Assembly (NCBI GenBank): GCA_964488475.1
Contig: CAZAUK010000016.1
Span: 73-64,072 of the forward strand
Origin: an uncultured bacterium
GTDB taxonomy: Bacteria > Krumholzibacteriota > Krumholzibacteriia > Krumholzibacteriales > WJIX01
DNA length: 64,000 nucleotides
Reading direction: 5' to 3'
Shown piece after piece: positions 14,054 through 50,231 of this stretch; position 1 is the stretch's first letter, and each line of letters opens with the position of its first letter. A program made the position numbers and the translations under genes. The notes beneath the pieces were generated by a model. That model saw only the letters and a list, made by a program, of their open reading frames with translations, had not been told where the DNA came from and made no database searches.

Positions 14054-14069
14054 TGCAAGAATCCTGCCA
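14054..14069 (-). promoter_or_regulatory. Sigma-54 promoter TGGCAGGATTCTTGCA driving the ACP operon
   Basis: Matches TGGCAC-N5-TTGCW with exact GG/GC spacing, about 90 nt upstream of the ACP start. Confidence 0.7.
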
Positions 14070-14137
14070 CGGTTCGTCTGGAAAGCCCGCCCGCTGTCCT
14101 TTTATGATCATTAATGCCGGAACAGGGGAATATCACC

Positions 14138-14437
14138 TCATAGTTTATCGATAACCGACTTCAACTTTCCCCCCATGGTAATATCTTTATCCTTTCTGTC
14201 GTCTATGATTATGGTTGTCAGGACCCTGCCCGCTCCCCGCTCAAAGGGCAAGCTGTGAAGTTCTGATATTACATCCATAATCTCCTTATACTCCCCTTCC
14301 AGGATAGTCGCCATGGGAGTAAGCTGGTATTTTATGTTTGTCTTGCTCTCCAGCACCTTTTGGCAACCGGCCACGTAGCTGCTTACGCTGGTGCTTCCCG
14401 TTCCGACCGGAACAACTGAAACAGATACTATCGCCAT
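14138..14437 (-). CDS. MTH1187/YkoF-family thiamine-binding protein
   Basis: VSVVPVGTGSTSVSSYV, YQLTPMATILEG and RVLTTIIIDDR motifs; start ATG 14437. Confidence 0.88.
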   Translation of the reverse strand: MAIVSVSVVPVGTGSTSVSSYVAGCQKVLESKTNIKYQLTPMATILEGEYKEIMDVISELHSLPFERGAGRVLTTIIIDDRKDKDITMGGKLKSVIDKL

Positions 14438-14634
14438 GTCTGTTTTCCTTTCCAAGCTTACTTCCGAAGCCCCTGTGGACTTGAGGCCAGAAATCAGTAT
14501 ATACGATTAACCGTGCTTCGGCCACCGGCTTTTTCACTGCCGGGGTGTCAAGGTTTGAGTGCTGATTCCCTTCAGGTTTGATAGTTTTGATTGACTCGGT
14601 CCTGTTATTACGTGAGAATATGGAAGCGATTTTT

Positions 14635-14650
14635 TGGATTGATATTTGCG
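14635..14650 (+). promoter_or_regulatory. Candidate sigma-54 promoter TGGATTGATATTTGCG
   Basis: GG and TTGC correctly spaced, about 50 nt before ATG 14703; the -24 box is degenerate. Confidence 0.45.
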
Positions 14651-14702
14651 TGAATTCACTCTGAAAGCGCCAGTGACTTAAGTTTTCCAGAGAGGCAGGA
14701 TC

Positions 14703-15569
14703 ATGAAACGCTGCGCGAGGTGTCTTCTTCCGGAGACGATACCCGGAATCAGTTTTGGCCATGAGGGGCTCTGCAGTTACTGCCGGAACTACCGTTCCAT
14801 CGAGTACCGGGGAGAGGAAGAGCTGGTCAGGCTGCTGGAAGAGGCCAGGAGCGGGAACCGTGAGTACGACTGCATTGTTCCTCTAAGCGGCGGCAGGGAC
14901 AGCAGTTATGTCTTGTATTTGGCGAAGAAAAGGTACGGGCTAAAAGTTCTGGCGGTAAACTATGATAATGAATTCAGGTCGAAGCAGGCCCTCGCGAACA
15001 TGAAGGCCGCCTGCTCGATCCTGGACGTCGACTTTGTTTCTCTCAGGTCAAAAAGAGGGATCGCCGGAAAGATAGTGGAGGCTTCGATCAGGAATTCATC
15101 CCGGGAGGGACTGAAATCGCTGGCCACCAGCTTCTGCGACGCCTGCGCATACGGGTATCAGGCGGTCGTCTATATCATGGCTGAAAAACATAAGGTTCCG
15201 CTGATCCTCTGGGGAAGCTCCGAAATGGAGTATACCGGGCACCTGACCGACGAGTTTTTCTCGGAGAGGAAATCGCCCTGGCGGAAGATACTTAACCAGA
15301 CCAGGGTCTTCCGGCTCAAGATCCTTAAGCTTCTACAGAGACTTGAATTCCCCGTTCCGGGCAATCTTTCTGTGGCGCTGCGGCTGGGCAGTCCCTGGCT
15401 TATGAATGATAAGATATCGGAGATCAGAGTATTTGATTATATCCCCTGGAAGCAGGATACCATAGTACGTACTATAAGGGAGGAACTGGGGTGGAGGAAA
15501 CCCGAGGATTCGGCTTCGACCTGGAGAACGGATTGTGAGCTGGAAAAATGGTCGAATACTGTTTTATGA
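14703..15569 (+). CDS. Second N-acetyl sugar amidotransferase-like protein, prematurely stopped at 15567-15569
   Basis: RCARCLLP...CSYC, LSGGRDS PP-loop, CDAC; paralogous to 9983..10978 but missing its C-terminus. Confidence 0.8.
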   Translation: MKRCARCLLPETIPGISFGHEGLCSYCRNYRSIEYRGEEELVRLLEEARSGNREYDCIVPLSGGRDSSYVLYLAKKRYGLKVLAVNYDNEFRSKQALANMKAACSILDVDFVSLRSKRGIAGKIVEASIRNSSREGLKSLATSFCDACAYGYQAVVYIMAEKHKVPLILWGSSEMEYTGHLTDEFFSERKSPWRKILNQTRVFRLKILKLLQRLEFPVPGNLSVALRLGSPWLMNDKISEIRVFDYIPWKQDTIVRTIREELGWRKPEDSASTWRTDCELEKWSNTVL

Positions 15570-15779
15570 ACCTGCTGGGCTGCAGCAAGAGATGCCTGGG
15601 GTTATCATAATATGATAAACGAAGGGCAGATGAGCACTGAGGAGGCAATAGAGCTGGAGGAGAGTATCAGCTCGCGTTTTACCGATGAGTTGAAAGAACT
15701 TCTTGAGATAATCGGATTGTCGGAAGAGGAGATCATAAGGATAGAATCTTTTCAGAACGGTCCGCCCTCCACCACTTGA
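15570..15779 (+). pseudogene. C-terminal continuation of the amidotransferase beyond the premature TGA
   Basis: The same frame continues as DAWGYHNMINEGQMSTEEAIELEE to TGA 15777-15779 and aligns without gaps to the paralogue's VREGYMERNEAIERLE. Confidence 0.7.
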
Positions 15780-15789
15780 TCTTAATATT

Positions 15790-17169
15790 ATGTCTAGCTC
15801 AAAATTATTCATAATTATAATGGCTTCCCTGATAGCGGTTGCCATAATCCTGATAGGACTTTTTTCCATACCTCTTGCCCTGATGGTGGCGGCCGGCGGT
15901 ATTACCGCTCTGGTGGTCTTTTTCGATCCATTCAAGGGCATGATCATATATGTAATCATCATTATCTTCAGACCGCAGGATTTTATCCCAGAGCTGGCGA
16001 ACGTCAGGGTTGCCCTGATAATGGCGATAATAATCCTGGCGTTTTTTCTGACCCACAAGGTATTGAAGAGGGAATCGATAAATTTTCTGGCCACCCGCCA
16101 GAACCTGCTGATGATATTGATGCTGATAATAGTACCGGTGAGTGTTCTGGTGAACAGCGGCCTGAAGCTGGCCTGGGAGCAGTTCAACGAATTTCTCACG
16201 ATTTTCTTCCTCTTTTTCATGGTGAGTAACGTTACCGAGAATTTTGAGAAAATGAAAAAGCTGATAACCGTGATTGTAATATGCGTCGCCATGATATCTC
16301 TTAACGGTCTGCTGCAGCACTTCAGGGGTTATGACGTAATCGGAAGAACTCCTCTTCTGGGACGTATCCGCTGGGTGGGTATATTCGGCGACCCCAACGA
16401 TCTGGCGCTATTGATAAACTCCTTTTTTCCACTGCTGCTTCTCTACTCCACCGGCAGGGGGGTGGGCCGGGGAGTCAGGTTTCTGTCGATACTGGCCGGG
16501 GCGGTCTTTCTACTGGCCGTCTATTATACCGATTCAAGGGGCGGGTTTCTGGCCCTGGCGGCGGTCCTGGTGCTCTTCGCTTATAAGAGGTGGGGTTTTC
16601 TGAGAGCTTTCCTGGTGGCCTCGGGAGCTTTCGTTGCTATATTCCTGGTGGGATTGGGGCGTATGACCAACCTCTCGCCCTATGAGGCGTCGGCCAGCGG
16701 AAGGGTGTTCGCCTGGATTCACGGGCTGGTCATGCTGAAGAACAACCCCGTTATAGGCATAGGATTTCAGGAGTTTTACGCAAACCACGGGCTTGCCGCC
16801 CACAGCGCGTTCATTGAATGCATGGCGGAACTGGGTCTGGTGGGTTATCTTGTCTGGATGACACTTCTCTATACCGCCGTTTCGGGCCTGATAAGATCGG
16901 AGAGGTATGAAACGGACCGGTCGGTCCACAGATACCTTGTTTTTCTTCAGCTGGCCTTCGCCGGGTTTATCGTAAGCTCTATCTTTCTCAACCAGGCCTA
17001 CAGCCCGGTACTATATATTATAGTGGCCCTTTCGTCGGTTATCGTCAAAGCCTCCCGGGCCGGCATAAAAATTCCGGTGATACCCGCTCCAAGGGAGATA
17101 GTCCACATCATAGCACTGATTACCGGGACCATCATACTTTACAAGCTGCTTGCTATCGTATACATATGA
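15790..17169 (+). CDS. O-antigen ligase / Wzy_C family membrane protein
   Basis: Multiple TM segments; GIFGDPNDLA, TDSRGGFL, GIG and AAHSAFIECMAELGLVG (Wzy_C His motif). Confidence 0.85.
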   Translation: MSSSKLFIIIMASLIAVAIILIGLFSIPLALMVAAGGITALVVFFDPFKGMIIYVIIIIFRPQDFIPELANVRVALIMAIIILAFFLTHKVLKRESINFLATRQNLLMILMLIIVPVSVLVNSGLKLAWEQFNEFLTIFFLFFMVSNVTENFEKMKKLITVIVICVAMISLNGLLQHFRGYDVIGRTPLLGRIRWVGIFGDPNDLALLINSFFPLLLLYSTGRGVGRGVRFLSILAGAVFLLAVYYTDSRGGFLALAAVLVLFAYKRWGFLRAFLVASGAFVAIFLVGLGRMTNLSPYEASASGRVFAWIHGLVMLKNNPVIGIGFQEFYANHGLAAHSAFIECMAELGLVGYLVWMTLLYTAVSGLIRSERYETDRSVHRYLVFLQLAFAGFIVSSIFLNQAYSPVLYIIVALSSVIVKASRAGIKIPVIPAPREIVHIIALITGTIILYKLLAIVYI

Positions 17170-17243
17170 TTGCGGGGTTCAATCACATTTATTACAAGAT
17201 ACGCACTAAACCGCGTTAACGATGCCGGGTGGAATAATATTCT

Positions 17244-17262
17244 CGGCTGAATCAACCAGCCG
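17244..17262. terminator. Short hairpin CGGCTG-N7-CAGCCG between convergent genes
   Basis: 6-bp stem just after the stop codon at 17268; no U-tract. Confidence 0.25.
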
Positions 17263-17267
17263 GAGGT

Positions 17268-18863
17268 TCAGTTGCCTTTAATCTTAACCAGTTCAGCGGG
17301 GGAAGGCAGATTGAGCGTCGGGGGTACGGGGGGAGCTCCCTCGGCGGTAGTTCCGAAGGCTCCCAGAGCGGGCGGATCGCTCCAGGTTCTGTTGTTATAA
17401 TCGAGCCCGTCGATGTATCTTTCATTGAAGTAGTCGTATATCTCGTTATTGAGAGCCGTTCCGCGGTCGGCGGCGGGACTGGTCTCGGTGAGCTGGAAAT
17501 GCAGGGGAAGGGACGGATTGGAGCTGACAAACTGGGGATCTCCAGTCAAGTCATTGTCATGCTGGGGGCACCCGTAATGATTAGCCAGAAGATCCCAGTC
17601 GGGTTCGGAGTCGGCGGGCTCCTGCATATTATGCCAGATGTTGTGCGAAAAGAGAAAGGTCTCGGGAAGAGTGGTGCTTGACTGAACCATGATAACCCAG
17701 TTTTCGTATCCCCAGGTGCCGTTGTAATATGAGATATTATTTACCACTTCCCCGTCACGGGGCCATACCAGATCGTATCCGCCTACCGAGGTCTGGAATG
17801 AATACATGTTAAACATGAAGGCAAGGCCGGTTGGCTCATCCGGATTGCTGTAGGCTACCGGACAGTAAAAGGTACAGTTGTATACTCCGCCTCCCCGCGA
17901 ACTGGCGAACTTTACGGGATTCTGTATGTTGACGAATACCGAGCGGTAGACCTTTATGTTCTTGGCCTCATAATCCATGGTCTCGCCGTCGCCGTCAAGC
18001 TCGTAGAGTGGAGGCCTGAAGAAAGCGCTTCCGGTGGCCTGGCCGATATTGACTCCGTTGTAACCGCAGGCCCTGAAGTAGCACCTGTCGATGGTTATCT
18101 TGCTGGAGCCTCCTTTGGCGACAAGCCCAGATCCACGCTCCCAGGCGAGATCAGCGTCAATGAACTTACAGTTTTGAATAGTACCGTAATGGCAGCCGAC
18201 CATGTCGAGCATGGGATCCTGAATATCGGTGAACACGCAGTCCTTGACCAGAAAGGTGTCCACGCCGGCCATCTTTAAGCCGTGATAGGGGATTCCCGAC
18301 CTGGAGAATTCACAACCTTCAATTATTATGTGATGAGCGGGGGTGCCCCTGGAGTCATGTGCATCGTCGGGGTGACCTCCATCGTCTATATTGACGCATT
18401 GCTGGCTGCTGTTGGTAAATACTATATCCTTGAGTTTTATAAAGGCGATATCGTCTTCCGGGTTATTGTTCGATGGTTCCGAATAGTCGGCAGTAAGCAA
18501 AAGGCAGACATTAGCCGATTTGTTGGCGTCGATTACCGGTTTGCTGGAAGCGTTAGGATCTCCCATAATTACCAGGTAATCATCCGGTCCGCCCCCGCGG
18601 ACCCTGAAATTGAAACCAACCACCCCCTGGCTGGGGTAGGTTCCCTCCATGACTATGACCGTGTCTCCGGTTCCTGGAGTAAGCACGTACTGGGCTATAT
18701 GCCTCAAGCTCTGATAGGGGTTGTCCGCGCTTCCGTTCCCGGAGGAATCGCTTCCGTCCGGCGCCATGTAGATCCTCGCCGCTGAGGGGCCTGCCAGCAC
18801 TATCAGCAGAGAAACAGAAATAATCGCGTGAATGTATAATATCTTTTTGGGGTTTAGGTCCAT
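17268..18863 (-). CDS. Secreted right-handed beta-helix (pectin lyase-like) protein
   Basis: Signal peptide; IYMAPDGSDSSGNGSADNPYQSL; GDTVIVMEGTY; repeated xIxxCxF parallel beta-helix rungs. Confidence 0.8.
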   Translation of the reverse strand: MDLNPKKILYIHAIISVSLLIVLAGPSAARIYMAPDGSDSSGNGSADNPYQSLRHIAQYVLTPGTGDTVIVMEGTYPSQGVVGFNFRVRGGGPDDYLVIMGDPNASSKPVIDANKSANVCLLLTADYSEPSNNNPEDDIAFIKLKDIVFTNSSQQCVNIDDGGHPDDAHDSRGTPAHHIIIEGCEFSRSGIPYHGLKMAGVDTFLVKDCVFTDIQDPMLDMVGCHYGTIQNCKFIDADLAWERGSGLVAKGGSSKITIDRCYFRACGYNGVNIGQATGSAFFRPPLYELDGDGETMDYEAKNIKVYRSVFVNIQNPVKFASSRGGGVYNCTFYCPVAYSNPDEPTGLAFMFNMYSFQTSVGGYDLVWPRDGEVVNNISYYNGTWGYENWVIMVQSSTTLPETFLFSHNIWHNMQEPADSEPDWDLLANHYGCPQHDNDLTGDPQFVSSNPSLPLHFQLTETSPAADRGTALNNEIYDYFNERYIDGLDYNNRTWSDPPALGAFGTTAEGAPPVPPTLNLPSPAELVKIKGN

Positions 18864-18911
18864 ACACTTCCTTCGGCATCGGTTATGGCATGACTGACCG
18901 GGTATAAATCT

Positions 18912-18927
18912 CGCAACTCTTGTGCCA
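18912..18927 (-). promoter_or_regulatory. Sigma-54 promoter TGGCACAAGAGTTGCG
   Basis: Consensus TGGCAC-N5-TTGC, about 50 nt upstream of ATG 18863. Confidence 0.75.
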
Positions 18928-18956
18928 TAACCGCCAAACCTTCGGCAACTTTTGAA

Positions 18957-18970
18957 TTTAGCCGGCTAAA
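18957..18970. repeat. Perfect palindrome TTTAGCCGGCTAAA upstream of the sigma-54 promoter
   Basis: 14-bp self-complementary sequence 30 nt upstream of the -24 box; possible regulator site. Confidence 0.3.
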
Positions 18971-19259
18971 ATAGAATAGAAACATCAAAACAAAAAGTCA
19001 ATAAATAGTTATAATCATAAATATCTCTTGCCTATGGCAGAGAATATTCGGCTGATGCCGCTACAATTCCATTCTTGGCAACACCTTAAGCCGGTAAATC
19101 TTTATCCGCCATACTACCGGTGGGCCTTCATCTCTTCAGGCCGTAAGATTTAGTCCATATCGTGTTGCAGTTATAAATATATAGTCTTGAAGCTGGATTT
19201 AAAAGTAATTATCCATGACTGAATCCCCCTATTTTGATATTCGATTGCATTATGGAGAT

Positions 19260-20351: not shown

Positions 20352-20368
20352 CTCAGTCTACTCCGGTT

Positions 20369-21472: not shown

Positions 21473-21522
21473 CGCCTTGAGCGCCCGATCAGAAAACAGC
21501 TTAGACCTCAGGCTATTGCATG

Positions 21523-21551
21523 TTGACAGAAAAATCCAATATTTTTATACT
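21523..21551 (+). promoter_or_regulatory. Sigma-70 promoter TTGACA-N17-TATACT
   Basis: Near-consensus -35/-10 with a 17-nt spacer, 58 nt before ATG 21609. Confidence 0.7.
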
Positions 21552-21608
21552 TTGTTTTTGCGCAACTGAGGAAGTTGTATCGCCAGTTATGAATAAAGGG
21601 GTTTTTTA

Positions 21609-22328: not shown

Positions 22329-22401
22329 GCGGCCCTGGATTTATAAGATCTTTCAGAGATAGATCGGCTAACCCGGCTTACTCCGCTCCAATTATGAGAA
22401 A

Positions 22402-23349: not shown

Positions 23350-23584
23350 TTCCTTAAGGATCTTAAGCGGTGAGATGCCGCAGGACCGATTTGCCGGCGC
23401 CGCAACAGGCAGAGTTCGGCGGCCGGGGCGTTTAAGCTCAGAATCCGGTTGACCTTTAAAGGTGATTATAATAGCCTGAGTATAGTTCGGCAAGATCCGG
23501 GGAAAGTAATTCTATATGAACGAGCCTGAATCGCGAGCTGATTGGTAATTGGCGAGGCAAATCTATACCCGAAAAGCAGTTAAC

Positions 23585-23600
23585 TGGCCCGAAAAATGCT
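23585..23600 (+). promoter_or_regulatory. Candidate sigma-54 promoter TGGCCCGAAAAATGCT
   Basis: GG/GC spacing exact; 25 nt before ATG 23625, with GGGAG RBS in between. Confidence 0.55.
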
Positions 23601-23624
23601 AGATATCTTGGTTGGGAGCAAGCT

Positions 23625-24737
23625 ATGCCAAGAATAATCGTGTTCGGTGAAGATTGGGGAGCCCACCCGAGCAGTACGCAGTATCTGATAAGCAACCTGC
23701 GGAGCGAGTATGATATTATCTGGGTCAACTCTATCGGCCTTAGAAGACCCAGGCTGTCAAGCGGCGATCTGAGACGGATATTCGGAAAAGGGAGCAGAAT
23801 AGTAAAGCGGTTCACTTCACCCAATAACGGGTCCCAAGCTCCATTTCCGGTCATAGACGCGGCCGCTATTCCCTGGCCGGGCAATCCGATCGTCAGAAAG
23901 ATAAACAGCTCGCTGATCAAGAAAAGCCTGCAGCTTTACCTGGATGGCCGGGAAAAGCTTTACCTCTGGTGTTCCCTTCCATCGGCTGTCGATGCGGTGG
24001 GAAAGCTGGACGAGAGCGCGGTCATCTACTATTGCGGAGACGATTTTTCCTCTCTGGCCGGAGTAGATCACGCCGCTGTGAGCGAGATGGAAAAGGAGCT
24101 GGCCGGAAAGGCGGACCTCATAATAGTGGCCAGTGAGGTGCTCGCCAGGAAGTTTCCCCAGGAAAAGACCCGCATCGTTCACCACGGAGTTGATTACGAA
24201 CTGTTCTCCAGTGTTCAGAAGCGTCCTGAAGATCTGCCGAACGGGAAGCCGATAGCGGGCTTCTACGGGTCGATAGCGGAATGGATAGACCAGGAACTCA
24301 TATGCGAGTGCGCGTCCCGGCTTCCTGGCTGGAATTTTGTGATTATCGGTCCGGCGAGGGTCGATTTTACCAGCCTTACCAGGCATCAGAACATACATCT
24401 TCTTGGCCCCAGACCTCATGACCGGCTTCCGGGATACGTTCAGCACTGGAATGTCGCTCTTCTCCCCTTCAAGCCGTCTGAACAGATTCAGGCCTGCAAC
24501 CCGCTTAAGCTGAGAGAGTACATGGCTTCAGGCACCCCGGTGGTCTCAACCTATTTCCCCTCCCTTGAGAGGTATCGCGGGCTGATCACAGTGGCCGGTT
24601 CGCGGGCTGAGTTCATTCAGGCCATAGAGGGAAGCCGGAAGATCGAAGGTAAAAACGCCGCCGGCCAGCGCAAAGTAGCTTCCGAGACCTGGTTCAGCCG
24701 GGCCAAAGAGGTTGATAGACTCCTGAGATCCTTATGA
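23625..24737 (+). CDS. GT-B glycosyltransferase (TuaH-like GT4-related)
   Basis: GEDWGAHPSSTQ, YYCGDDF, GVDYELF, GFYGSIAEW, NPLKLREYMASG. Confidence 0.85.
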   Translation: MPRIIVFGEDWGAHPSSTQYLISNLRSEYDIIWVNSIGLRRPRLSSGDLRRIFGKGSRIVKRFTSPNNGSQAPFPVIDAAAIPWPGNPIVRKINSSLIKKSLQLYLDGREKLYLWCSLPSAVDAVGKLDESAVIYYCGDDFSSLAGVDHAAVSEMEKELAGKADLIIVASEVLARKFPQEKTRIVHHGVDYELFSSVQKRPEDLPNGKPIAGFYGSIAEWIDQELICECASRLPGWNFVIIGPARVDFTSLTRHQNIHLLGPRPHDRLPGYVQHWNVALLPFKPSEQIQACNPLKLREYMASGTPVVSTYFPSLERYRGLITVAGSRAEFIQAIEGSRKIEGKNAAGQRKVASETWFSRAKEVDRLLRSL

Positions 24738-24822
24738 TTCTCAAAACCGTTCAAAGGCGCATAGTTGCCGGCAGAGGAGCTTTGCCGTCTACCTTGATGC
24801 CGCCGGAGAGCGGATGGATTCA

Positions 24823-29204: not shown

Positions 29205-30491
29205 TTATTTAAAAAAGAGGTGAAAAAACCTGGAAAAGATCACCATTATTTCATCCACCCTGAGAGCAAATAGAAGAATTCCCAGCGCGAAAAAGTTGAA
29301 CGTCCCGATGACCCCGACCGCCTGGCTGTAACTGGACCTGAAATAGCGCCTGATACTCCTGTTTTTGATCTTTCGTTTCTGTTTTCGGTATATGTTCAGA
29401 ACAGCCAGCCCCAGTCCCTGGTATAATCCCCAGAGCACGAAGTTGAAAGTATCGCCGTGCCACATCCCACATATGATGAAGGTCACGATTATGCTGACGT
29501 TCGAGAGGGTGATGGGTCTTTTTTTGAAGTACCGGTAGTTTCTGAGTTTCCTGGACAGCGGCCAGAAGATGTAATCGGTAAGCCAGGTGGTAAGGGACAT
29601 GTGCCAGTTGGCCCATAGTTGCTGGATGTTTCTTTTCATGAAAGGGTTGTTGAAGTTTTCGGGAAGTTCTATGCCCATTATTCGGGCGGACCCGATGGCC
29701 AGGTCGGAATAACCGGCGAAATCAAAATAAAAGTAGAGGGTATAGGCATACAGGCCGATCAGGACCTGGAAAGAGCTCATACTCGATATCGAACCGGATA
29801 TATTGGTTATAGCGTATGGAAAGACCAGAGTCGACAGAACGAATTTCTTGAACAGGCCGTGTACTATCCTTTCCAGCCCGGGTTTCAGGTCGGCTGAGAG
29901 GTCCTTCTCCTTGAACTCCATCTGAGCGCTGAAATGGTTGTAGCGGTTTATCGGCCCGCTGATGAAGGAAGGGAAGAAGAAGATGAAATTGAAAAAGTAC
30001 AGGATATTGATCTTTTCTATCTGCCGCTTGTAGCACTCGATCACGAAGTGCATCAGTTTGAATGAAGAATAGGAGATTCCGATTATGAATATGAAGTCGA
30101 TAGCCTCAAAATCCCTGCCCAGAAGGTCCTCAAAAAAGATTTCCTGCAGAAAATTGTATTTGAAGAAGGCCAGAATCAGAATCAGTGAACCGATTGAGCC
30201 GGAAGCGATAAGGAGTTTTCGTGACCCGGGTTTCTCAACAGAGGTTCTGTTCAGGTAGTAACCCATGAAATAAACGATGATGGTTATAACCAGCAGGAAG
30301 AGGAAAGAGAGTGGGGAAAACCTGGGAAGTGCCAGCAGAAAGAGGATGTTGAAAACGGCTATTGAAACATCCCTGATCCAGCGGCGAACCATCAGCAGCC
30401 TGAATATCACAACGGCCGCCAGGAAGAATATCCAGAACTTAATGTCGTAGTAGAAGTTGAATTTCAGTAATATAGTGTTAAAATAATCCAT
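29205..30491 (-). CDS. MBOAT O-acyltransferase (DltB/AlgI-like)
   Basis: GISYSSFK, FFPSFISGPI, YFDFAGYSDLAIG, ENFNNPF, WHMSLTTWL and the catalytic GMWHG. Confidence 0.92.
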   Translation of the reverse strand: MDYFNTILLKFNFYYDIKFWIFFLAAVVIFRLLMVRRWIRDVSIAVFNILFLLALPRFSPLSFLFLLVITIIVYFMGYYLNRTSVEKPGSRKLLIASGSIGSLILILAFFKYNFLQEIFFEDLLGRDFEAIDFIFIIGISYSSFKLMHFVIECYKRQIEKINILYFFNFIFFFPSFISGPINRYNHFSAQMEFKEKDLSADLKPGLERIVHGLFKKFVLSTLVFPYAITNISGSISSMSSFQVLIGLYAYTLYFYFDFAGYSDLAIGSARIMGIELPENFNNPFMKRNIQQLWANWHMSLTTWLTDYIFWPLSRKLRNYRYFKKRPITLSNVSIIVTFIICGMWHGDTFNFVLWGLYQGLGLAVLNIYRKQKRKIKNRSIRRYFRSSYSQAVGVIGTFNFFALGILLFALRVDEIMVIFSRFFHLFFK

Positions 30492-31584
30492 GCTTAAGGA
30501 ATACTTCCTCTATCAGATACTCTCCTACTAACCTGTTGGCGAATTCGTTGTAATGGGGATCCCGCTCGAAGCATAGCTTCTCCCCGAGGTCGTAATGTTT
30601 TTTAAGGACGGGCCTGGGATTGAGCAGCAGCTTGCCGTTTTTCCGAGCGTAGTCTATCATGAATTCCTCGTACAACGAGGGGTGATAACGGGAGGGGTCT
30701 GCCCCCAAATCGCCCAGGACACTCTTCAGCCTGAAACTGTCCACCAGTGGGACGAAAAGGTAGGCTGTCTTTATTCCCTTTCCCGCGCAGTACTCTTCGA
30801 ATTTATTGAGGTATCCCTCGGCTTCCCCAGCCTCGTCCAGGTTGTACAGCCGGCTCTCTTCGGAGTAAAGTTCGAAATGTTTGGGAAGCCTCTCGGATAT
30901 TTCGATCAGGTTCAATCTGGCGTTAAGTTTCCAGAAGACATCCCTGAGAAAATCATATATGGACAGGGTGTTCTTTATGATGAGCCTGATATAGGCTTTT
31001 TTCCATGAGCTTTTGTAAAACAGGTATCCGCTCTTGACCATGACCGGTTCAAGCGTGGAGTGAGTGGTGTCGTACCAGTTCAGGGAGGAAGAGCTGAGGC
31101 CGAGTATAACCAGTTCCGGTTTTCGCCGCTCGTCTTCGATGAATTCCCTGAGGATGGTCTCCTGCTCCATCAGAAAATGCCCCCCCACCGCGAAATTCAG
31201 AACCTCGATCCCCTTTCCGGCAGCGTAATCCGAAAATATTCCTACAAAGGATTCATCGAAATCGACTCCCTGCCCGAAAACCTGGGAAGCGCCCAGGAAA
31301 ACTATGTAAGGTTTTTTATTTATGTCGACATCGCCGGTCTCACTGTCCCTGGCGCCGATGGAATTGGTTATGGTTGTATAGGAATAGGTGGACCAGTCAT
31401 TGACCTTGACCAGGTTTTTCTTGAAGCGGTAGAAATCTCTGTATTGAACATATTCACCCCGGTATGTGTTGGAAGCGCTCCTTCCCGAAATTCTGAGACC
31501 GATTTCGAGGATGACCAGGCATAGAATCAAGGTGGCCGCCAGAACCGCTGCCTTTTCAAATATTATCTTTAAATTTATTTTCAA
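30478..31584 (-). CDS. Membrane-anchored SGNH-type acyl transfer protein (AlgJ/DltD-like)
   Basis: One N-terminal TM helix; block I FLGAS, NFAVGG, C-terminal DPHYN; overlaps the MBOAT start. Confidence 0.75.
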   Translation of the reverse strand: MKINLKIIFEKAAVLAATLILCLVILEIGLRISGRSASNTYRGEYVQYRDFYRFKKNLVKVNDWSTYSYTTITNSIGARDSETGDVDINKKPYIVFLGASQVFGQGVDFDESFVGIFSDYAAGKGIEVLNFAVGGHFLMEQETILREFIEDERRKPELVILGLSSSSLNWYDTTHSTLEPVMVKSGYLFYKSSWKKAYIRLIIKNTLSIYDFLRDVFWKLNARLNLIEISERLPKHFELYSEESRLYNLDEAGEAEGYLNKFEEYCAGKGIKTAYLFVPLVDSFRLKSVLGDLGADPSRYHPSLYEEFMIDYARKNGKLLLNPRPVLKKHYDLGEKLCFERDPHYNEFANRLVGEYLIEEVFLKHGLF

Positions 31585-31628
31585 AACAGCCCTCTTGGGT
31601 AAGCTCGAGGTTGACCACAGCCCCCCCG

Positions 31629-31775
31629 TTAGAAGTTAACATAGATAAATTCAGGTATTTCCGTTGTTCCGCTGGTATACCTGTGCATAAGGAAAATGAC
31701 GATCCAGAATATCTCAAACGCGATAATGATCAGCTTTCGGTTCCGCGCTACGATATCTTTGATTTTAACGAGCAT
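31629..31775 (-). CDS. 48-aa DltX-like single-TM peptide with a C-terminal FIYxxF motif (not in the ORF track)
   Basis: Translated by hand: MLVKIKDIVARNRKLIIIAFEIFWIVIFLMHRYTSGTTEIPEFIYVNF*; RBS GGAGAGGGAG; first gene before the SGNH and MBOAT genes. Confidence 0.8.
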   Translation of the reverse strand: MLVKIKDIVARNRKLIIIAFEIFWIVIFLMHRYTSGTTEIPEFIYVNF

Positions 31776-31869: not shown

Positions 31870-31885
31870 CGCAAATCATAGACCA
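31870..31885 (-). promoter_or_regulatory. Candidate sigma-54 promoter TGGTCTATGATTTGCG for the DltX-like/SGNH/MBOAT operon
   Basis: GG and TTGC at exact spacing, about 95 nt upstream of ATG 31775. Confidence 0.55.
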
Positions 31886-32073
31886 AAGGGCCGGCGCTTT
31901 TCAATTCAAAATTACGGTAATTAGTTAATTAGCTGCTTTTTAGATATTAATCAAGCGAAAAGGATATTTCAAGCAGGCCTTGATACCAATCGAGAGAGAG
32001 GTTTTTTTTGAAGTTATCTCTGAATAGGGGGTCCAACCGGCGGGGGAGCGCGGGGGCTGTTCCCCCCGGGTTC

Positions 32074-33015
32074 CTATTTACTGAAATGTATCGAGATCCT
32101 GTGGAAATCGCCCAGCTCCCCATAGGCTGAGAAGGAGTAATCTAGAGACATGTAATCTCTGACCTTGATTCCGCCTCCCATTGAAAAACCGCTGCCCGGA
32201 CGGTATTCCCTCCCGCTGTATCCCGCTCTCAGGCAGAGGATCCGGTGGGTGGTTATCTCCGCTCCCGCGTTGAAATAAACGTCCTCATACCTGGGTTTGA
32301 CCGCGTCGGCGGCAATGGTGACCGAAGTCTCGAAGCTTACCAGTCTAATCGACTGGCTGGCGCCCATCCTCATAGTCAGGGGGATCGGCTCCTCAAGTGA
32401 CCTGAACTTGACATCGGGGCCCATGTTCTGAACGGAGAATCCCACCGTTGTACCAAGCTGTTTCACGCTGTAACTCAGCCCGGCGTCTATGGCGACGCCT
32501 TCGGAGTGCCATTCCCCCAGGTTCTCCTTGAAATGCTTGAATCCCAGGCCCATCGATAAAAACGGTATCGGTGAAAATCTTGCTCCGACCAGCATCTGAT
32601 AGTTATCAGTCCTGAACTTTTCGCCGGTGGGGCCGAACTGGTCGTATCCCTCTATTTTCGGCCGGTAGAGATAGGTTATGCCCCCTCCAACGGCAAAATT
32701 CCCCGGAAGGGAGGCATAGGCGGAGAGATTGTCGTAACGGGTGTCGATTATCCATTCGGAATGGGATATACCTATTCCTCTTCCGCCGCCTTTGGCCAGA
32801 AGAGCCGGGTTGTAGAAGAGGGAAAACGGATTTTCCAGGGCTACGCCGGTTTCCCCCATGCCTATAGACCGGGGGCTTACCGGAAGGTTGAGATATGAAG
32901 CTCCGGCCGACCCGGGACCATCGCTCGATCCCAGACACGGAGCCGCCAGGAATAATGTTGCTGACACGGTTCCCAGAAGCACGCGCAAGAGGCTCATACC
33001 TGATGTTTTAGTCAT
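32074..33015 (-). CDS. PorV/PorQ-family outer-membrane beta-barrel
   Basis: Signal peptide; GASYLNLPVSPRSIGMGE, FYNPA, SHSEW; C-terminal GDFHRISIHF. Confidence 0.85.
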   Translation of the reverse strand: MTKTSGMSLLRVLLGTVSATLFLAAPCLGSSDGPGSAGASYLNLPVSPRSIGMGETGVALENPFSLFYNPALLAKGGGRGIGISHSEWIIDTRYDNLSAYASLPGNFAVGGGITYLYRPKIEGYDQFGPTGEKFRTDNYQMLVGARFSPIPFLSMGLGFKHFKENLGEWHSEGVAIDAGLSYSVKQLGTTVGFSVQNMGPDVKFRSLEEPIPLTMRMGASQSIRLVSFETSVTIAADAVKPRYEDVYFNAGAEITTHRILCLRAGYSGREYRPGSGFSMGGGIKVRDYMSLDYSFSAYGELGDFHRISIHFSK

Positions 33016-33030
33016 ATCCCCGTCCGTTTT

Positions 33031-33933
33031 CTAGTTAACTATCATTATAGGTCTTCTGGAAACGACCTTTTCCTTGGAGTCTTCAATCACTACGTAATAT
33101 ACGCCACTCATAACCGGGTTGCCGGTGCGGTTTGTTCCCTCCCAGTTCAGGGAAGTATCTGAAGAGGTGATCTTCTCACTGTAGATCTCTATACCGTTGG
33201 AGCCGTAAATCTTCACTGTCGAACCGGCGGGGAGGTTTTCCATGCTCATGCTTCCCTGTTCGGGGTGGAACGGAACAGGGTATATATTGAGCTGGGGAGT
33301 GGTCAGAGGCGCCGGACTTTCGCCTTCCACGGTAAAACTGTCCCTCGCGGAAATAGTAAGGTTATCGTATTCATCAAAAGCGACTGCCCTGGCGTAATAT
33401 TTGGCTTCTTCCAGGTCCTCCAGGCTGGCCGTGTGGTTCAAGGCGTATTCACTGGTGTTCCAGGTGCTCATGGAATCAAGAACGGCGTCCTGATCGAACT
33501 GCACGAAACCGGATGTTGAAACGGGGGTCTCCCAGCTCAGATCATAAGATCCGTTTCCCACCTTTGATATGGTGGTGATCTCACAGCTGTCCCTGAGAGC
33601 CTGATCGGCGTCCTGTGGAATAGTCATCGCTGAAACGGGGTTTGAAAAGCCGCTTCGCTGACCCGAGGAATTCTTCGCCACTATCCTGTAAAAGAATCTC
33701 AATCCCTCCGGTCTATCCTGATCGATGTAACTGAAAGTATCGTTGTCCACGCTGTCCAGGGCGGCGAAGCCGGAGTTCCGGTATATTGAGACGTAAATCA
33801 CGTAACCGGTTATATCCGGCTCCGGGTTCGGCTCCCAGTTGATCAGATAATCGGTGCTGCCCTGAGCCTGAAGACCGGTGGCGGCAGCCAAGAGAAGAAG
33901 AAAGCTGATTACTCTGATTGATGTTCTGGTCAT
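33031..33933 (-). CDS. Secreted fibronectin-III protein with a T9SS-type/FlgD-like C-terminal domain
   Basis: Signal peptide from ATG 33933; Fn3-like WEPNPEPDITGY; CTD-like LNIYPVPF...VKIY...WEG...SGVYYVVI. Confidence 0.75.
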   Translation of the reverse strand: MTRTSIRVISFLLLLAAATGLQAQGSTDYLINWEPNPEPDITGYVIYVSIYRNSGFAALDSVDNDTFSYIDQDRPEGLRFFYRIVAKNSSGQRSGFSNPVSAMTIPQDADQALRDSCEITTISKVGNGSYDLSWETPVSTSGFVQFDQDAVLDSMSTWNTSEYALNHTASLEDLEEAKYYARAVAFDEYDNLTISARDSFTVEGESPAPLTTPQLNIYPVPFHPEQGSMSMENLPAGSTVKIYGSNGIEIYSEKITSSDTSLNWEGTNRTGNPVMSGVYYVVIEDSKEKVVSRRPIMIVN

Positions 33934-34184
33934 TCCATTTGCTCCTTCTACTGCATCCAATTTTTACGAAAAAGAATTTTCCGTGAATTTGGATATGTTC
34001 ATATTAAAAAATCTTTCAAAAAGATTCGAGGGTAAAAATGTAAATTGCGAATTTATGTGTCTTTTTTGACTTTTTCGGCCTGTTTCTCATGATGGCTTTT
34101 GCTTCCCGGTCGATTCTCATCGAATCGATTTCTGTTTCAAGGGCCGGTTAAAATTTACCTAACGCTGCTGCGGTCTGGGAATCT

Positions 34185-34200
34185 CGCAAGTAGTGTGCCA
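34185..34200 (-). promoter_or_regulatory. Sigma-54 promoter TGGCACACTACTTGCG
   Basis: Consensus match in the intergenic region upstream of the CTD-protein/PorV pair. Confidence 0.72.
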
Positions 34201-36998: not shown

Positions 36999-37137
36999 CT
37001 CTCCAATCTCAATCGCCATTGGGGTCTTTTTCCAGGCTCCTTAAAATATAAAACGGTTTACCGTTATGTCAAAATTATATTTACACCGGATTCGCTTAAT
37101 CGGGAAAACAATCACCCGCTGATGAAAAGGGTTGAAC

Positions 37138-38392: not shown

Positions 38393-38421
38393 TTGTAAGT
38401 TTACGAACCAGTTTCTATAAT
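38393..38421 (+). promoter_or_regulatory. Sigma-70 promoter TTGTAA-N17-TATAAT for ilvE-rpiB-glyA
   Basis: Perfect -10 box, 17-nt spacer. Confidence 0.6.
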
Positions 38422-39892: not shown

Positions 39893-39913
39893 AAGGAAAA
39901 GGGGCGATTTATA

Positions 39914-41182: not shown

Positions 41183-41213
41183 ATCAGGGTGTTTTCAATC
41201 TTCGGGAGCAGGT

Positions 41214-41693: not shown

Positions 41694-41694
41694 T

Positions 41695-42153: not shown

Positions 42154-42213
42154 ATATCGGCTTTCCGGCTGCTCACAGGCGTCATGGTAAACGGGCGACA
42201 AAAAGGGGGAAAG

Positions 42214-43044: not shown

Positions 43045-43056
43045 CCGGGAGACAAG

Positions 43057-43800: not shown

Positions 43801-43934
43801 AATATCTTGAATAGGGCCTACGGTGGTGTTAAATTGTATAACTCGGCGGGGTTGAGGCTGACTGTGAATTTGTGATCGGATTGAGCTAGGTTTACTTACT
43901 AAAGGCTTCCGGCAGACAGCCGGTTGTAGAATCG

Positions 43935-44939
43935 ATGGAAGATTTCGATAATACTGAACTGGATTCATTCCGCTCGTCGGTGGAGTATGAGCTGTCTTTT
44001 CTGGAAGAAAGGCTCAAGTCGGTATTAAGATCCGATATCCCGCTTCTTAACGAGATCTGCACCTCATTGAATAGTAGTCCCGGCAAAAGAATACGTCCAA
44101 ACGTTCTCTTTCTGGCGGCCAGAAACGTCAAGGGTGATCTCGAGAAGGCGATAACAGCCGGTTTCTCTGTGGAACTCATTCATACCGCGACCTTGATCCA
44201 TGACGATATAATAGACGGACACGATTTCAGAAGGGGAAATCTCACTATCAGCGCCAGATGGGGAAGGAACATCGCCACCATAATGGGCGATTTTCTCTAT
44301 TCCAAGGCCTTTTCCTGTCTCAGCGAAGAGGGATTGACCGATGCCATGGCGATACTGGCAAAGGCCACCAATGCTATGAGTGTGGGTGAGATGCTTCAGT
44401 TTCAGCAAAAGCGGGATGTAAACGTCAGCGAGGCGGGATACCTGAACCTGATAAACATGAAGACAGCGTCGCTTTTTTCCGCCGCCTGCGAGTGCGGCGC
44501 CGCCCTTGGAGTCAGCGGTAACGGTTACAGGACCAAATATTCCATGTTCGGAGAAAACATGGGGCTGGCTTACCAGATCACAGATGACCTGTTCGACTTT
44601 ATCGCTTCAGAGAGCACCATCGGCAAGCCGGTTGCTTCCGATCTCACTGCGGGAAAGGTCACCCTTCCCTTCATAACATCCTACCAGAACGCCCCCGATA
44701 ACATCAGGAAGAGAATCGGCGAGATATTCAACGGAGGGCTCAAGAAGGAGAACCACTGGAAGGAAGTCATGCTGTTCGTGCAGAATTACGGCGGCATCGA
44801 GTATTCCATAGAAAAAGCCAGGAGTTTTGGCAGGAAAGCCAAGGTCTATCTCAAATCACTTTCTCCTTCACCCGAGATCGATGCTCTGGGTTACGCGGCG
44901 GACTACGTGGTGGAAAGGGTGGCCCCCTATTCCGGTTAA
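43935..44939 (+). CDS. Polyprenyl diphosphate synthase
   Basis: GKRIRP, first Asp-rich HDDIID..RRG, KTASLF, second QITDD motif. Confidence 0.93.
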   Translation: MEDFDNTELDSFRSSVEYELSFLEERLKSVLRSDIPLLNEICTSLNSSPGKRIRPNVLFLAARNVKGDLEKAITAGFSVELIHTATLIHDDIIDGHDFRRGNLTISARWGRNIATIMGDFLYSKAFSCLSEEGLTDAMAILAKATNAMSVGEMLQFQQKRDVNVSEAGYLNLINMKTASLFSAACECGAALGVSGNGYRTKYSMFGENMGLAYQITDDLFDFIASESTIGKPVASDLTAGKVTLPFITSYQNAPDNIRKRIGEIFNGGLKKENHWKEVMLFVQNYGGIEYSIEKARSFGRKAKVYLKSLSPSPEIDALGYAADYVVERVAPYSG

Positions 44940-44991
44940 GAGCGGCAGCGCCTATTTGATCTTATTAATTTGAAAGAAGCTGGAGGCCGCT

Positions 44992-45984: not shown

Positions 45985-46338
45985 TTGACTAAAACAGCAC
46001 CAAAGACGCTGGCAAGAAGAATAATCAAAATTATCTGGCAGAAGAAAGCGGAAGATATTGTATTGCTCAATCTCAAGAAGGTTTCTTATATAACTGACTA
46101 TTTCATTGTTTGTTCAGTGGCGAGTGACGTTCAGGCCAGGGTGGTCGCGGACTCAGTAGCTGAATATTTGAAGGGAAAAGGAATATCATTCAACATCGAA
46201 GGTTATGAATCTCCCCACTGGGTCCTGATAGACTGCTTCAGCGTCGTTCTGCATATCTTTCAGCCGGAAGCCAGAAATTTCTACTCCCTGGAGAAATTCT
46301 GGGGGGACGCTCCGAGAGAGGAGTTTCCCGATGGATAA
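45985..46338 (+). CDS. rsfS: Ribosome silencing factor
   Basis: KKAEDI, DYFIVCS, WVLID, R.FYSLEKFWGD. Confidence 0.93.
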   Translation: MTKTAPKTLARRIIKIIWQKKAEDIVLLNLKKVSYITDYFIVCSVASDVQARVVADSVAEYLKGKGISFNIEGYESPHWVLIDCFSVVLHIFQPEARNFYSLEKFWGDAPREEFPDG

Positions 46339-48010: not shown

Positions 48011-48157
48011 AGGAGAGTGAGGGTGCAGGGTATTTTGCGCAGTGCCGGGAAAGACCGGCGAATGTTCTTGTAAGCTATATATGGACAAGGGCTTGGGGTG
48101 TTCGTAAATTCGCTGGACCGGGACGCAGCCCTTAAATCCTTAAAGAACGGAGCTAAG

Positions 48158-49069
48158 TTGAATCTTCTGATAGTAGGTTCGGTTGCATTCGATTCAATAG
48201 AGTCGCCGGGAGGGAGTGTGGACAGGGCTCTGGGCGGATCGGCGGTATACGCCTCGCTGGCGGCCAGTTACCAGGTTCCGGTCAGACTTGTCGGTGTAGT
48301 GGGAGAGGATTTTGAGGATTCACACAGGGCGGTACTTCTGGACAGGGGCATTGATATAGAAGGACTGGAAAGTGTGAAAGGCGGCAAGACATTTTTCTGG
48401 AGAGGCATATACGGAACCGATCCAAACGACCGGGAAACCATAGTAACCGAGCTTAACGTCTTTGAGAATTTCAGTCCGTTGATTCCTGAAAATTGGAAAA
48501 GTTCCCGATGGGTCTTTCTGGCGAACATAGATCCGGATCTTCAGCTGAAGGTCCTGGATCAGTGTGAAGGGAAGCCTTTCGTGGGATGCGATACCATGAA
48601 TTTCTGGATCGGGGGAAAGCCCGGCTCGCTGGCCGAAGTCCTTCGAAGAACAGATCTCTTTTTCCTCAATGACAGCGAGGCCGTCCAGCTCAGCGGCGAG
48701 GCCAATATCTTTCTGGCGGCCAGGACCATACTGGATATGGGCCCGAAGATCGTAGTCGTCAAGAAAGGAGAGCACGGCGCCATTCTGATGACAGAGGAGA
48801 GCCTGTTTATCGCGCCGGCTTACCCGCTGGAAAGGTTTCCCGATCCCACCGGCGCCGGAGACACTTTCGCCGGTGGTTTTCTGGGGTGCCTGGCTCAGTC
48901 CGGTGAGGTAAATAAAATAAATTTACGCCGGGCCATGATTTATGGCACGGTTTTAGCGAGTTTCACCTGTGAAGGATTTTCGGTTGATTGTATCCGGAAT
49001 CTAGATATTGATATTATCAGGGAGCGGTTCAACAGGCTGGTGGAGCTCAGCCGCATCGACGAAGAATGA
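48158..49069 (+). CDS. PfkB-family carbohydrate/nucleoside kinase
   Basis: VGSVAFD, GGSAVY, KKGEHG, DPTGAGDTFAGG; probable TTG start behind GGAG. Confidence 0.92.
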   Translation: MNLLIVGSVAFDSIESPGGSVDRALGGSAVYASLAASYQVPVRLVGVVGEDFEDSHRAVLLDRGIDIEGLESVKGGKTFFWRGIYGTDPNDRETIVTELNVFENFSPLIPENWKSSRWVFLANIDPDLQLKVLDQCEGKPFVGCDTMNFWIGGKPGSLAEVLRRTDLFFLNDSEAVQLSGEANIFLAARTILDMGPKIVVVKKGEHGAILMTEESLFIAPAYPLERFPDPTGAGDTFAGGFLGCLAQSGEVNKINLRRAMIYGTVLASFTCEGFSVDCIRNLDIDIIRERFNRLVELSRIDEE

Positions 49070-49081
49070 TTCAGCAGCCCG

Positions 49082-49110
49082 TTGTAAATTGTAATTTATT
49101 GTGGTACAAT
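49082..49110 (+). promoter_or_regulatory. Sigma-70 promoter TTGTAA-N17-TACAAT with extended -10 TG
   Basis: Read directly in the AT-rich intergenic region. Confidence 0.5.
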
Positions 49111-49279
49111 GTCTTAAACAGGAACAACATTCAGGCGGAGCCTAATTGTCAAATTGGTATTGGGTTAATCGCCGCGGCAGAATGGCGGTGGTTCAGAGCC
49201 GGCGGTGCCGGGATTTCGTGATCGGGGAAAAGGGAGCGTTTTCGCGAATTGGATTAGCGCTGAAAGGGAAGGAGTCTTT

Positions 49280-50119
49280 TTGACGGGGGATTTATCAAAG
49301 CGGAAGGCCATCAGGAGGGCCGAGGAGCTTATTCTAATGCTTCGTGACATCCGCTCCTGCAGGATTTCGGCCGACGAGGATGATGAGATAGCGGAGATTC
49401 ACGTTGTGGCGGACAATTCCGGAAGATCTCCAAAGCTCATCGCCAGGGATGTCGAAGGGTGCCTGAAAGCAGAGCTGGGCCTCAAGGTCGATTACAGGAA
49501 GATCGGTGTAGTTATAATGGACTCGGATGAAGAAGAGGGAGGGGAAGAGGGATCAAACTCGGCACACGAACTCAGCGGCCGGGATAAAGAGGATGATATC
49601 GAGATAGACCAGCAAAGCGAGGCTGTTGAGCCTGCGGAGTGGTCCGGGAAAGGTGAGAATGAAGTGAGGGATAAGGGTGAATATGAACTCGAGTTTCTCG
49701 AGGAAGACTCCAGAATACGTTTCAGGGGTATGAACCTGAAGGTAGGCGAGGATTTGGTGGACGTCTATGTAAAGCTGGAGAAGGGCGGGGTCCAGGTGGT
49801 GGGTACGGCCGACGCTGTTAAACAGCACAAACCTTTCTTCAAATTGATTGCTGCCGCCACACTTGACGCGGTTACCAAACTTCTTGACGAGAAATTCCAT
49901 CTGTGCTTATCTGGGATAGAGCAAGTCAGTGTTTCGGATCGGGAAGCGATAGTTGTTTCGATTCAGGTAGTGGACGACGGGAAGGTCGAATATCTATCAG
50001 GAAGCGCCTTCATCGGGCGTGATCCCAACGAGACGGCGGCGCTTGCCGTTCTGGACGCGATTAACAGGCCTTTCGGGAGATGGAAATCGCGCAGGCGGGT
50101 CCACTATAGAATTAGATAG
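49280..50119 (+). CDS. Conserved hypothetical protein upstream of the HD-GYP gene, with an acidic linker
   Basis: ORF 49205..50119; probable TTG start at 49280 behind GGAG; two folded-looking regions joined by an E/D-rich linker. Confidence 0.7.
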   Translation: MTGDLSKRKAIRRAEELILMLRDIRSCRISADEDDEIAEIHVVADNSGRSPKLIARDVEGCLKAELGLKVDYRKIGVVIMDSDEEEGGEEGSNSAHELSGRDKEDDIEIDQQSEAVEPAEWSGKGENEVRDKGEYELEFLEEDSRIRFRGMNLKVGEDLVDVYVKLEKGGVQVVGTADAVKQHKPFFKLIAAATLDAVTKLLDEKFHLCLSGIEQVSVSDREAIVVSIQVVDDGKVEYLSGSAFIGRDPNETAALAVLDAINRPFGRWKSRRRVHYRIR

Positions 50120-50215
50120 ATCGCCTTCCGTAACTACCGGCCTGCGATATTCTCCAGCGTGAAATTGAATCGTGCGCTCAATTTGGACAGGTTTTCACGG
50201 CCGAGCCTTTGGATA

Positions 50216-50231
50216 TGGCATAGAAAGTGCA
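50216..50231 (+). promoter_or_regulatory. Candidate sigma-54 promoter TGGCATAGAAAGTGCA
   Basis: TGGCA and TGC at exact spacing, about 65 nt before the HD-GYP start. Confidence 0.55.

Follow-up and report, generated by a model that had tools for sequence, protein, structure and literature searches.

Candidate sigma-54 promoters conserved with surface-polysaccharide genes in an uncultured bacterium of Candidatus Krumholzibacteriota

The syp polysaccharide locus of Vibrio fischeri contains several internal sigma-54 promoters with a shared enhancer sequence, and the activator SypG is encoded in the locus itself. A second arrangement is that of the exosortase A (XrtA/EpsH) PEP-CTERM loci with PrsK/PrsR, where sigma-54 control is found with a set of associated enzyme families, an AsnB-like amidotransferase, a deacetylase, a GNAT protein, and a sorting-signal protein encoded in the cluster. 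More generally, sigma-54 is recognised as a controller of exopolysaccharide genes and of others concerned with the cell exterior (Francke et al. 2011, PMC3162934). Here, we describe five putative sigma-54 promoters in a contig (CAZAUK010000016.1) of an uncultured bacterium of Candidatus Krumholzibacteriota from a microbial-mat metagenome. The window, that is, the stretch of 64,000 nucleotides (nt) that was analysed, is essentially the whole contig. Judging from their scores, their placement, and their conservation, at least four of these sites are very probably real promoters read by the sigma-54 (RpoN) RNA polymerase.

As in the syp locus, several sigma-54-type promoters are distributed across one polysaccharide cluster and each would head its own transcription unit; in contrast to syp, the window has neither an activator gene nor a common upstream sequence, and the motif stands before only part of the cluster. 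The features listed above for the exosortase loci have counterparts in the window, with sigma-54 control as a putative one, although here the sorting signal is a C-terminal domain of the type IX secretion system (T9SS) with a PorV/PorQ-family partner, and exosortase is absent. The survey of Francke et al. (2011, PMC3162934) likewise used motif scoring and cross-genome conservation, and it describes sigma-54 promoters ahead of genes that serve exopolysaccharide synthesis, transport, or structures of the cell surface. That survey did not include this candidate phylum, and what is found here beyond it is the T9SS-type sorting-domain protein, its PorV/PorQ-family partner, and an HD-GYP gene among the units concerned.

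Motif scores and placement

An earlier note on this DNA had proposed seven sigma-54 promoters, defined by correctly spaced GG-N10-GC motifs, as an envelope regulon. The seven 16-mers lie at the coordinates and on the strands claimed, all of them are intergenic, and each is aimed at the next gene (Table 1). Three had been called near-perfect, and only those at 14054, 18912, and 34185 match TGGCAC-N5-TTGCW with at most one mismatch. However, the GG-N10-GC pattern is uninformative as a criterion: it occurs 572 times in the window, and shuffled sequences give 560 ± 22. Counting the longer consensus over the whole window does not separate the sites either: with at most one mismatch there are three matches against 1.02 expected, a number reached in 9 of 100 shuffles and hence weak on count, and with at most two mismatches there are 10 against 19 expected, which is if anything a depletion. 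The consensus at up to two or three mismatches over the whole window was thus discarded as evidence, no enrichment being seen. Such whole-window counts prove nothing, and only position-aware scoring splits the signal from the noise.

For this scoring, a position weight matrix was used that is our own approximation of a published sigma-54 compilation, the bit values being indicative only. The search space was the sense strand of 43 upstream regions (7,843 nt), and the background was a first-order Markov chain with the upstream composition. The best scores per region are 16.2, 15.1, 15.1, 12.9, and 12.5 bits, below which there is a gap to 9.1, 8.3, and 8.0 bits and then a continuum. At 10 bits or more, five hits are obtained where 0.61 would be expected (Poisson P = 4e-4), and the antisense strand of these 43 regions has none; the density of hits is 0.64 per kb in upstream and 0.035 per kb in coding DNA, a difference of about 18-fold. 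A similar distribution is observed when 13 non-redundant loci are taken at 11 bits or more, with 0.82 hits per kb on the upstream sense strand, 0.18 on the antisense strand, and 0.042 in coding DNA (20-fold over coding). In the five sites, GG and GC are exactly 10 nt apart within the TGGCAC-N5-TTGCW context (12.5-16.2 bits). On the other hand, between 8 and 10 bits three hits are found in the upstream regions where about 1.5 are expected; thus, the sites at 14635 and 31870, both with 8.3 bits, are not above chance within the window. The comparison with background suggested by the earlier note therefore places five of its sites far above expectation in upstream DNA and leaves these two behind.

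Two sigma-54-like matches are intragenic, one in a polyprenyl synthetase gene (44621-44636, +, 13.2 bits) and the other in a PfkB gene (48943-48958, +, 12.7 bits), and both are probably chance. The match at 48943 was rejected as a promoter: the related locus L074 keeps it only because the stretch encodes the peptide YGTVLAS, and L073 and L075 lack it.

Promoter units and their conservation in relatives

Conservation strongly backs the sites at 14054, 18912, 34185, and 50216 as putative promoters, and gives moderate backing to 23585, which is probably a sigma-54 promoter as well. The motif of the acyl carrier protein (ACP) operon is present at seven of seven ortholog loci (10.2-16.2 bits, 49-110 nt upstream of the start), being identical in L003 despite diverged flanks. 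For the beta-helix gene, all 12 ortholog loci, with 36-91% protein identity, carry the motif 25-80 nt before the start (10.5-17.6 bits), for example as TGGCATGAGAGTTGCA in L004, TGGCACATTACTTGCG in L007, TGGCACGCATAATGCC in L009, and TGGTACAAAAAATGCA in L068. Moreover, a MAFFT alignment of five beta-helix upstream regions of about 400 nt shows only three conserved islands, namely TTGACTTTT, followed at about 17 nt by TATTxT; the block TGGCA.rArAGTTGC; and the ribosome-binding site. The motif of the sorting-domain gene is found at seven of eight loci (13.6-15.2 bits), 225-245 nt before the approximate gene start, and that of the HD-GYP gene at four of five, L073, L074, and L075 having it with 11.2-16.9 bits at 67-80 nt upstream in surroundings that cannot be aligned. 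For the glycosyltransferase gene it is kept in one of two orthologs: L003 has TGGCCTGAATCATGCT at the same distance of 24 nt, as the best-kept block of the pairwise alignment, and in L004, where the gene is internal to an operon, the motif is absent. Across these loci the positions kept are GG and GC at the fixed spacing of 10 nt, whereas the spacer and the flanks drift. As a control, the regions upstream of the orthologs of the GT4 pair, hexA, Wzy, Wzx, GDSL, AsnB, and GNAT genes do not exceed 7.2 bits.

These loci were gathered through the beta-helix protein and through the HD-GYP protein. With the beta-helix protein as sole query, reference genomes gave no match, and alignment-based scans succeeded. 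For the HD-GYP orthologs (57-85% identity) and the orthologs of a relative's activator, the names given by NCBI are repeatedly Candidatus Krumholzibacteriota or Krumholzibacteria, on which the assignment of the lineage is based, and the L073 promoter locus is in the closed genome CP070727.1. Labels of Spirochaetaceae or Patescibacteria on some relatives are inconsistent and probably binning errors, and were not trusted.

The relatives have the same gene families in different orders and orientations. In L005, L006, L007, L009, and L068, the genes for the beta-helix protein, the sorting-domain protein, the PorV-like protein, ACP, and the ligase follow each other on one strand, and the motif precedes the first, second, and fourth of them. 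In the window, the beta-helix, sorting-domain, and ACP units are scattered and each still has a motif of its own; the promoter thus travels together with the gene. Additional sigma-54-like motifs (11.6-13.3 bits) are observed in the relatives (L004 17235-17250; L005 3927-3942 and 18792-18807; L007 19929-20012), where they precede a hexapeptide transferase/AsnB pair, a GT4 gene, a GT2 gene, and the gene of a Por_Secre_tail protein. The same genes have no motif in the window, so the set of sigma-54 genes seems to be lineage-variable. The arrangement of sigma-54 promoters as such is a lineage trait of Candidatus Krumholzibacteriota.

The genes behind the ACP promoter form a likely operon encoding ACP, an AMP-forming ligase, an NAD-synthase-like protein, a WbuX-like amidotransferase, a Wzx flippase, and a GDSL/SGNH protein, to which genes for a SpoU methylase and a nitroreductase possibly also belong. 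The order ACP, ligase, NAD synthase, WbuX, Wzx is conserved in L002, L003, L007, and L069. The beta-helix protein has 14 orthologs at E < 1e-89 and, from its fold family, is probably a secreted enzyme that modifies or cleaves polysaccharide.

In the sorting-domain unit, the PorV/PorQ-family gene (32074-33015) matches PorV_fam NF033709 with 141 bits against a cut-off of 90; the matches of the cargo C-terminus to CHU_C, FlgD_ig, and Por_Secre_tail are weak, with 21.5-27.6 bits, which is near the cut-offs or under them. No core T9SS genes were found in the window. The start of the sorting-domain gene is most likely the ATG at 33933, according to the alignment of translations. The leader before it (33934-34172, -) has a length of about 240 nt that is conserved in distant relatives (225-245 nt), and neither an Rfam match at a permissive threshold nor a consensus fold was found for it; a short reading frame inside it was discarded, being not conserved. 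Directly 3' of the PorV/PorQ-family gene there is a G+C-rich hairpin (32046-32070, CGGGGG-loop-CCCCCG) without a T-run on the gene strand, which may separate this unit from the downstream DltX-like/MBOAT genes.

The two weak sites show a different picture. The site at 14635, upstream of WbuX-like and Wzy genes, is kept only in the very close L002 (87% identical) and not in L003, and the sigma-70-type match beside it (TTGACT-17-GAGAAT, 14591-14619) is likewise not kept in L003; with a score in the chance range and no conservation beyond L002, it is not supported as a sigma-54 promoter. The ACP gene and the divergent WbuX-like gene are separated by a gene of the Thiamine_BP family (14138-14437, -, 99 residues), and therefore 14054 and 14635 occupy two separate intergenic regions, a correction to the earlier picture. 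The site at 31870, upstream of the DltX-like/SGNH-like/MBOAT genes, includes the TATGAT hexamer of TTGAAA-18-TATGAT (31904..31875, a 10/12 match), so a sigma-70-type promoter explains it better. In the sole ortholog recovered (L004), this unit has no motif of its own and stands behind the beta-helix gene. Both sites are most likely chance matches. In consequence, the observation of the earlier note is partly confirmed, five of its seven sites being retained (14054, 18912, 34185, 50216, and 23585, the last kept in one relative only).

Table 1. Promoter candidates, sigma-70-type matches, and units in the window.
Feature	Position	Strand	Sequence or match	Remarks
Sigma-54-type promoter, ACP operon	14054..14069	-	TGGCAGGATTCTTGCA	16.2 bits, top in window; 91 nt upstream of operon; predicted start about 14042-14044
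Likely operon, ACP to GDSL/SGNH	6356..13962	-		Same strand, gaps of -4 to 62 nt, suggesting co-transcription
Sigma-70-type match, ACP operon	14003-14031	-	TTGATT-17-TATACT	Downstream of sigma-54 motif; kept in L002 and L003
Weak candidate, WbuX-like/Wzy genes	14635..14650	+	TGGATTGATATTTGCG	Most likely chance
Sigma-54-type promoter, beta-helix gene	18912..18927	-	TGGCACAAGAGTTGCG	15.1 bits; 48 nt upstream; predicted start about 18900-18902
Right-handed beta-helix protein	17268..18863	-		PF13229; N-terminal hydrophobic segment
Sigma-70-type match, beta-helix gene	18973..19001	-	TTGACT-17-TATTCT	About 50-70 nt upstream of sigma-54 motif
Sigma-70-type match, hexA	21523-21551		TTGACA-17-TATACT	
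Sigma-54-type promoter (probable), glycosyltransferase gene 23625-24737	23585..23600	+	TGGCCCGAAAAATGCT	12.5 bits; 24 nt upstream; predicted start about 23610-23612
Weak candidate, DltX-like/SGNH-like/MBOAT genes	31870..31885	-	TGGTCTATGATTTGCG	Most likely chance
Gene pair, sorting-domain and PorV/PorQ-family proteins	32074..33960	-		fn3 protein with T9SS-type C-terminal sorting domain; PorV/PorQ-family outer-membrane protein
Sigma-54-type promoter, sorting-domain and PorV/PorQ-family genes	34185..34200	-	TGGCACACTACTTGCG	15.1 bits; predicted start about 34173-34175, then leader of about 240 nt
Sigma-70-type match, outer-membrane protein gene	37045-37072			
Sigma-70-type match, housekeeping operon	38393-38421			
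Sigma-54-type promoter, HD-GYP gene 50297-51613	50216..50231	+	TGGCATAGAAAGTGCA	12.9 bits; 65 nt upstream; predicted start about 50241-50243

Sigma-54 machinery and alternative readings

If the general sigma-54 mechanism applies to these sites, the holoenzyme would bind GG (-24) and GC (-12) as a closed complex, and transcription would begin about 11-13 nt downstream only after remodelling by an ATP-hydrolysing activator. Since the start needs an activator, the units would be off by default and switched on by signals. The units so controlled would be the carrier-protein/ligase/amidotransferase/flippase operon, the secreted beta-helix enzyme, one glycosyltransferase, the T9SS-type sorting-domain surface protein with its PorV/PorQ-family partner, and the HD-GYP phosphodiesterase of cyclic di-GMP (c-di-GMP).

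Activators are present in the syntenic relatives and are widespread in the phylum. In L074, which is syntenic around the HD-GYP gene, a protein with tetratricopeptide repeats (TPR), an AAA+ domain, and HTH_8 is encoded 4.5 kb downstream, with 198 bits to PF00158 and the GAFTGA loop, and a GAF-type activator is found in L076 (218 bits). Dozens of proteins of the TPR-type family are named sigma-54-dependent regulators of Krumholzibacteria. Where such activators are present, sigma-54 is to be expected as well. For the literature on Krumholzibacteriota, nothing on sigma-54 was found.

Two observations on these activator genes may be added. L077 has four of them, three TPR-type and one GAF-type, within about 10 kb (6776-17304). 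Also, in L076 the identical motif TGGCACGCGAGGTGCT occurs twice, 500 nt apart (16332-16347 and 16832-16847, +), upstream of the gene for the GAF-type activator (17189-18832), which suggests a duplicated segment and, possibly, autoregulation.

Several points weigh against reading the five sites as sigma-54 promoters. The window has no rpoN and, as the earlier note had said, no activator gene (Pfam scan, about 60 proteins), and the RpoN-box peptide is absent from six-frame translations of the window and 72 loci. A search for RNA runs containing this sequence gave none. The sorting-domain gene of L007 is without the motif, being there directly behind the beta-helix gene, and so is the HD-GYP ortholog of L076 (59% identity). 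The matrix approximates a compilation built mostly from Proteobacteria, and the motifs of the orthologs were chosen with that same matrix, so that the counts per locus are not fully independent; the MAFFT alignments are independent. Moreover, conserved sigma-70-type matches stand beside the beta-helix and ACP motifs and could be working promoters, and the lack of a shared upstream sequence, described below, also counts here.

Otherwise, the organism uses promoters of the TTGACA/TATAAT type. Sigma-70-type matches at -35 and -10 are enriched, with 30 against 19.4 and 28 against 16.7 expected, and good ones stand before hexA, an outer-membrane protein gene, and the housekeeping operon (Table 1), the last in agreement with the earlier note. 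No relative has a sigma-54 motif before the two GT4 genes, the hexapeptide transferase/phosphoesterase pair, Wzy, or Wzx, which have sigma-70-type matches instead; the rest of the cluster appears to be on ordinary sigma-70-type promoters.

It is improbable, however, that the neighboring sigma-70-type promoters do the work at the five sites as well, with TGGCA...TTGC serving as the operator of another protein or as a roadblock formed by the sigma-54 holoenzyme. Such a reading would fit the conservation of TTGACT-17-TATTCT at five beta-helix loci, where TTGACTTTT as part of this region is invariant in five relatives, and that of TTGATT-17-TATACT at the ACP operon in L002 and L003. Nonetheless, the conserved positions are exactly the sigma-54 determinants, GG and GC with the 10-nt spacing, while the rest drifts; the element is asymmetric and always aimed at the gene; and the HD-GYP and sorting-domain genes, which lack a conserved sigma-70-type match, have it as well. 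Also, we know of no repressor family with a TGGCA...TTGC half-site pattern. The simplest reading is that the beta-helix and ACP units have tandem promoters, one basal and one inducible, as the conserved pairs suggest. The idea that all matches are chance and without function is scarcely credible. It could draw on the background frequency of GG-N10-GC, on the deficit of the two-mismatch consensus, and on the comparable scores of the intragenic matches at 44621 and 48943, but for the five strong sites it is already contradicted by their placement and orientation (P about 4e-4) and by their repeated conservation in diverged and rearranged loci.

If the five sites are sigma-54 promoters, they might belong to a single dedicated regulon, as the earlier note had proposed, in which one SypG- or PrsR-like activator acts through a common enhancer and the whole envelope programme is switched together. 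We regard this as doubtful. The five units have related functions and are conserved together in the relatives, and in L074 the TPR-type activator gene is close to the HD-GYP gene. However, when 260 nt upstream of each of the five promoters were compared on both strands, no 7- or 8-mer was common to three or four of the regions, and hence none to all five, in a k-mer search that could miss degenerate sites; TTGACTTTT, conserved upstream of the beta-helix promoter, is not found again at the other promoters; the relatives have many different activators; and in L073, L075, and L077 there is no synteny between the TPR activator and the HD-GYP gene. With no sequence common to the regions upstream of the five promoters, the notion of a single-activator regulon is not warranted, and it is safer to speak of a "sigma-54-dependent set". 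The interpretation of the earlier note is in this way partly supported, sigma-54 control being retained and the common regulator set aside.

Cluster content, relation to known systems, and meaning

The polysaccharide biosynthesis cluster spans 6.3-36 kb; housekeeping genes follow at 38-50 kb and then the HD-GYP gene at 50297. The glycosyltransferases of the cluster are two of GT4, one of GT2, and one other; they are joined by a Wzx flippase and a Wzy-like polymerase, by two hexapeptide acyltransferases, and by amidotransferases, one AsnB-like and two WbuX-like. Further members are a deacetylase, a GNAT protein, a carrier protein and its AMP-forming ligase, a DltB-like MBOAT with a 48-residue DltX-like protein and an SGNH-like protein, the beta-helix protein, and the fn3 protein with the T9SS-type C-terminal domain next to the PorV/PorQ-family protein. 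Outside the cluster, the LigD domains (3'-phosphoesterase, ATP-dependent ligase, and primase-polymerase) are encoded by three separate adjacent genes at 1946-4738 (+).

As regards enzyme families, the parallel with exosortase/PEP-CTERM systems drawn in the earlier note is apt. In NCBIfam, exosortase-A-associated families are the top match for the ligase (TIGR03098, 481 bits, cut-off 592), for the two GT4 transferases (TIGR03088, 222 and 162 bits, cut-off 409), and for the Wzy-like protein (TIGR03097, 97 bits, cut-off 188), although each score is below the curated cut-off. The defining proteins are absent: the same Pfam scan found no exosortase (EpsH/XrtA), PEP-CTERM protein, or PrsK/PrsR in the window, which agrees with the note as far as exosortase is concerned.

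A comparison with the Dlt system (DltX-A-B-C-D) reveals a corresponding set of parts, that is, a carrier protein, an AMP-forming ligase, an MBOAT whose nearest family is DltB, a DltX-like protein of 48 residues ending in FIYVNF, and an SGNH-like protein. Unlike Dlt, these parts are split between 29205-31775 (-), with the DltX-like, SGNH-like, and MBOAT genes, and 12068-13962 (-), with the carrier and ligase genes. Moreover, the scores stay under the cut-offs, the MBOAT reaching 243 bits against DltB with a cut-off of 375, and the ligase resembles acyl-CoA ligases and not DltA.

Taken further, these likenesses allow a speculative picture, which we hold only tentatively, of a phylum-wide surface-glycan module gated by sigma-54 as a T9SS-flavored counterpart of the exosortase/PEP-CTERM systems. 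It would combine enzymes of the XrtA-associated type, a Dlt-like acylation set, and, instead of exosortase, the sorting-domain protein with its PorV/PorQ partner, and it would be co-controlled with the HD-GYP phosphodiesterase by TPR-fused activators.

Sigma-54 control of surface polysaccharide is a familiar arrangement, so the case made here is solid but unsurprising and leaves the general understanding of sigma-54 unchanged. As to approach, sigma-54 promoters in uncultured lineages can be predicted from the motif score together with metagenomic conservation, which the bare GG-N10-GC pattern does not allow. For this candidate phylum without a cultured member, the five promoters provide a first testable view of gene regulation. 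If they are true, part of the polysaccharide cluster, a surface protein, and a c-di-GMP-degrading enzyme would be silent until an activator fires, and biofilm-type functions would thereby be linked to signal-dependent sigma-54 control.

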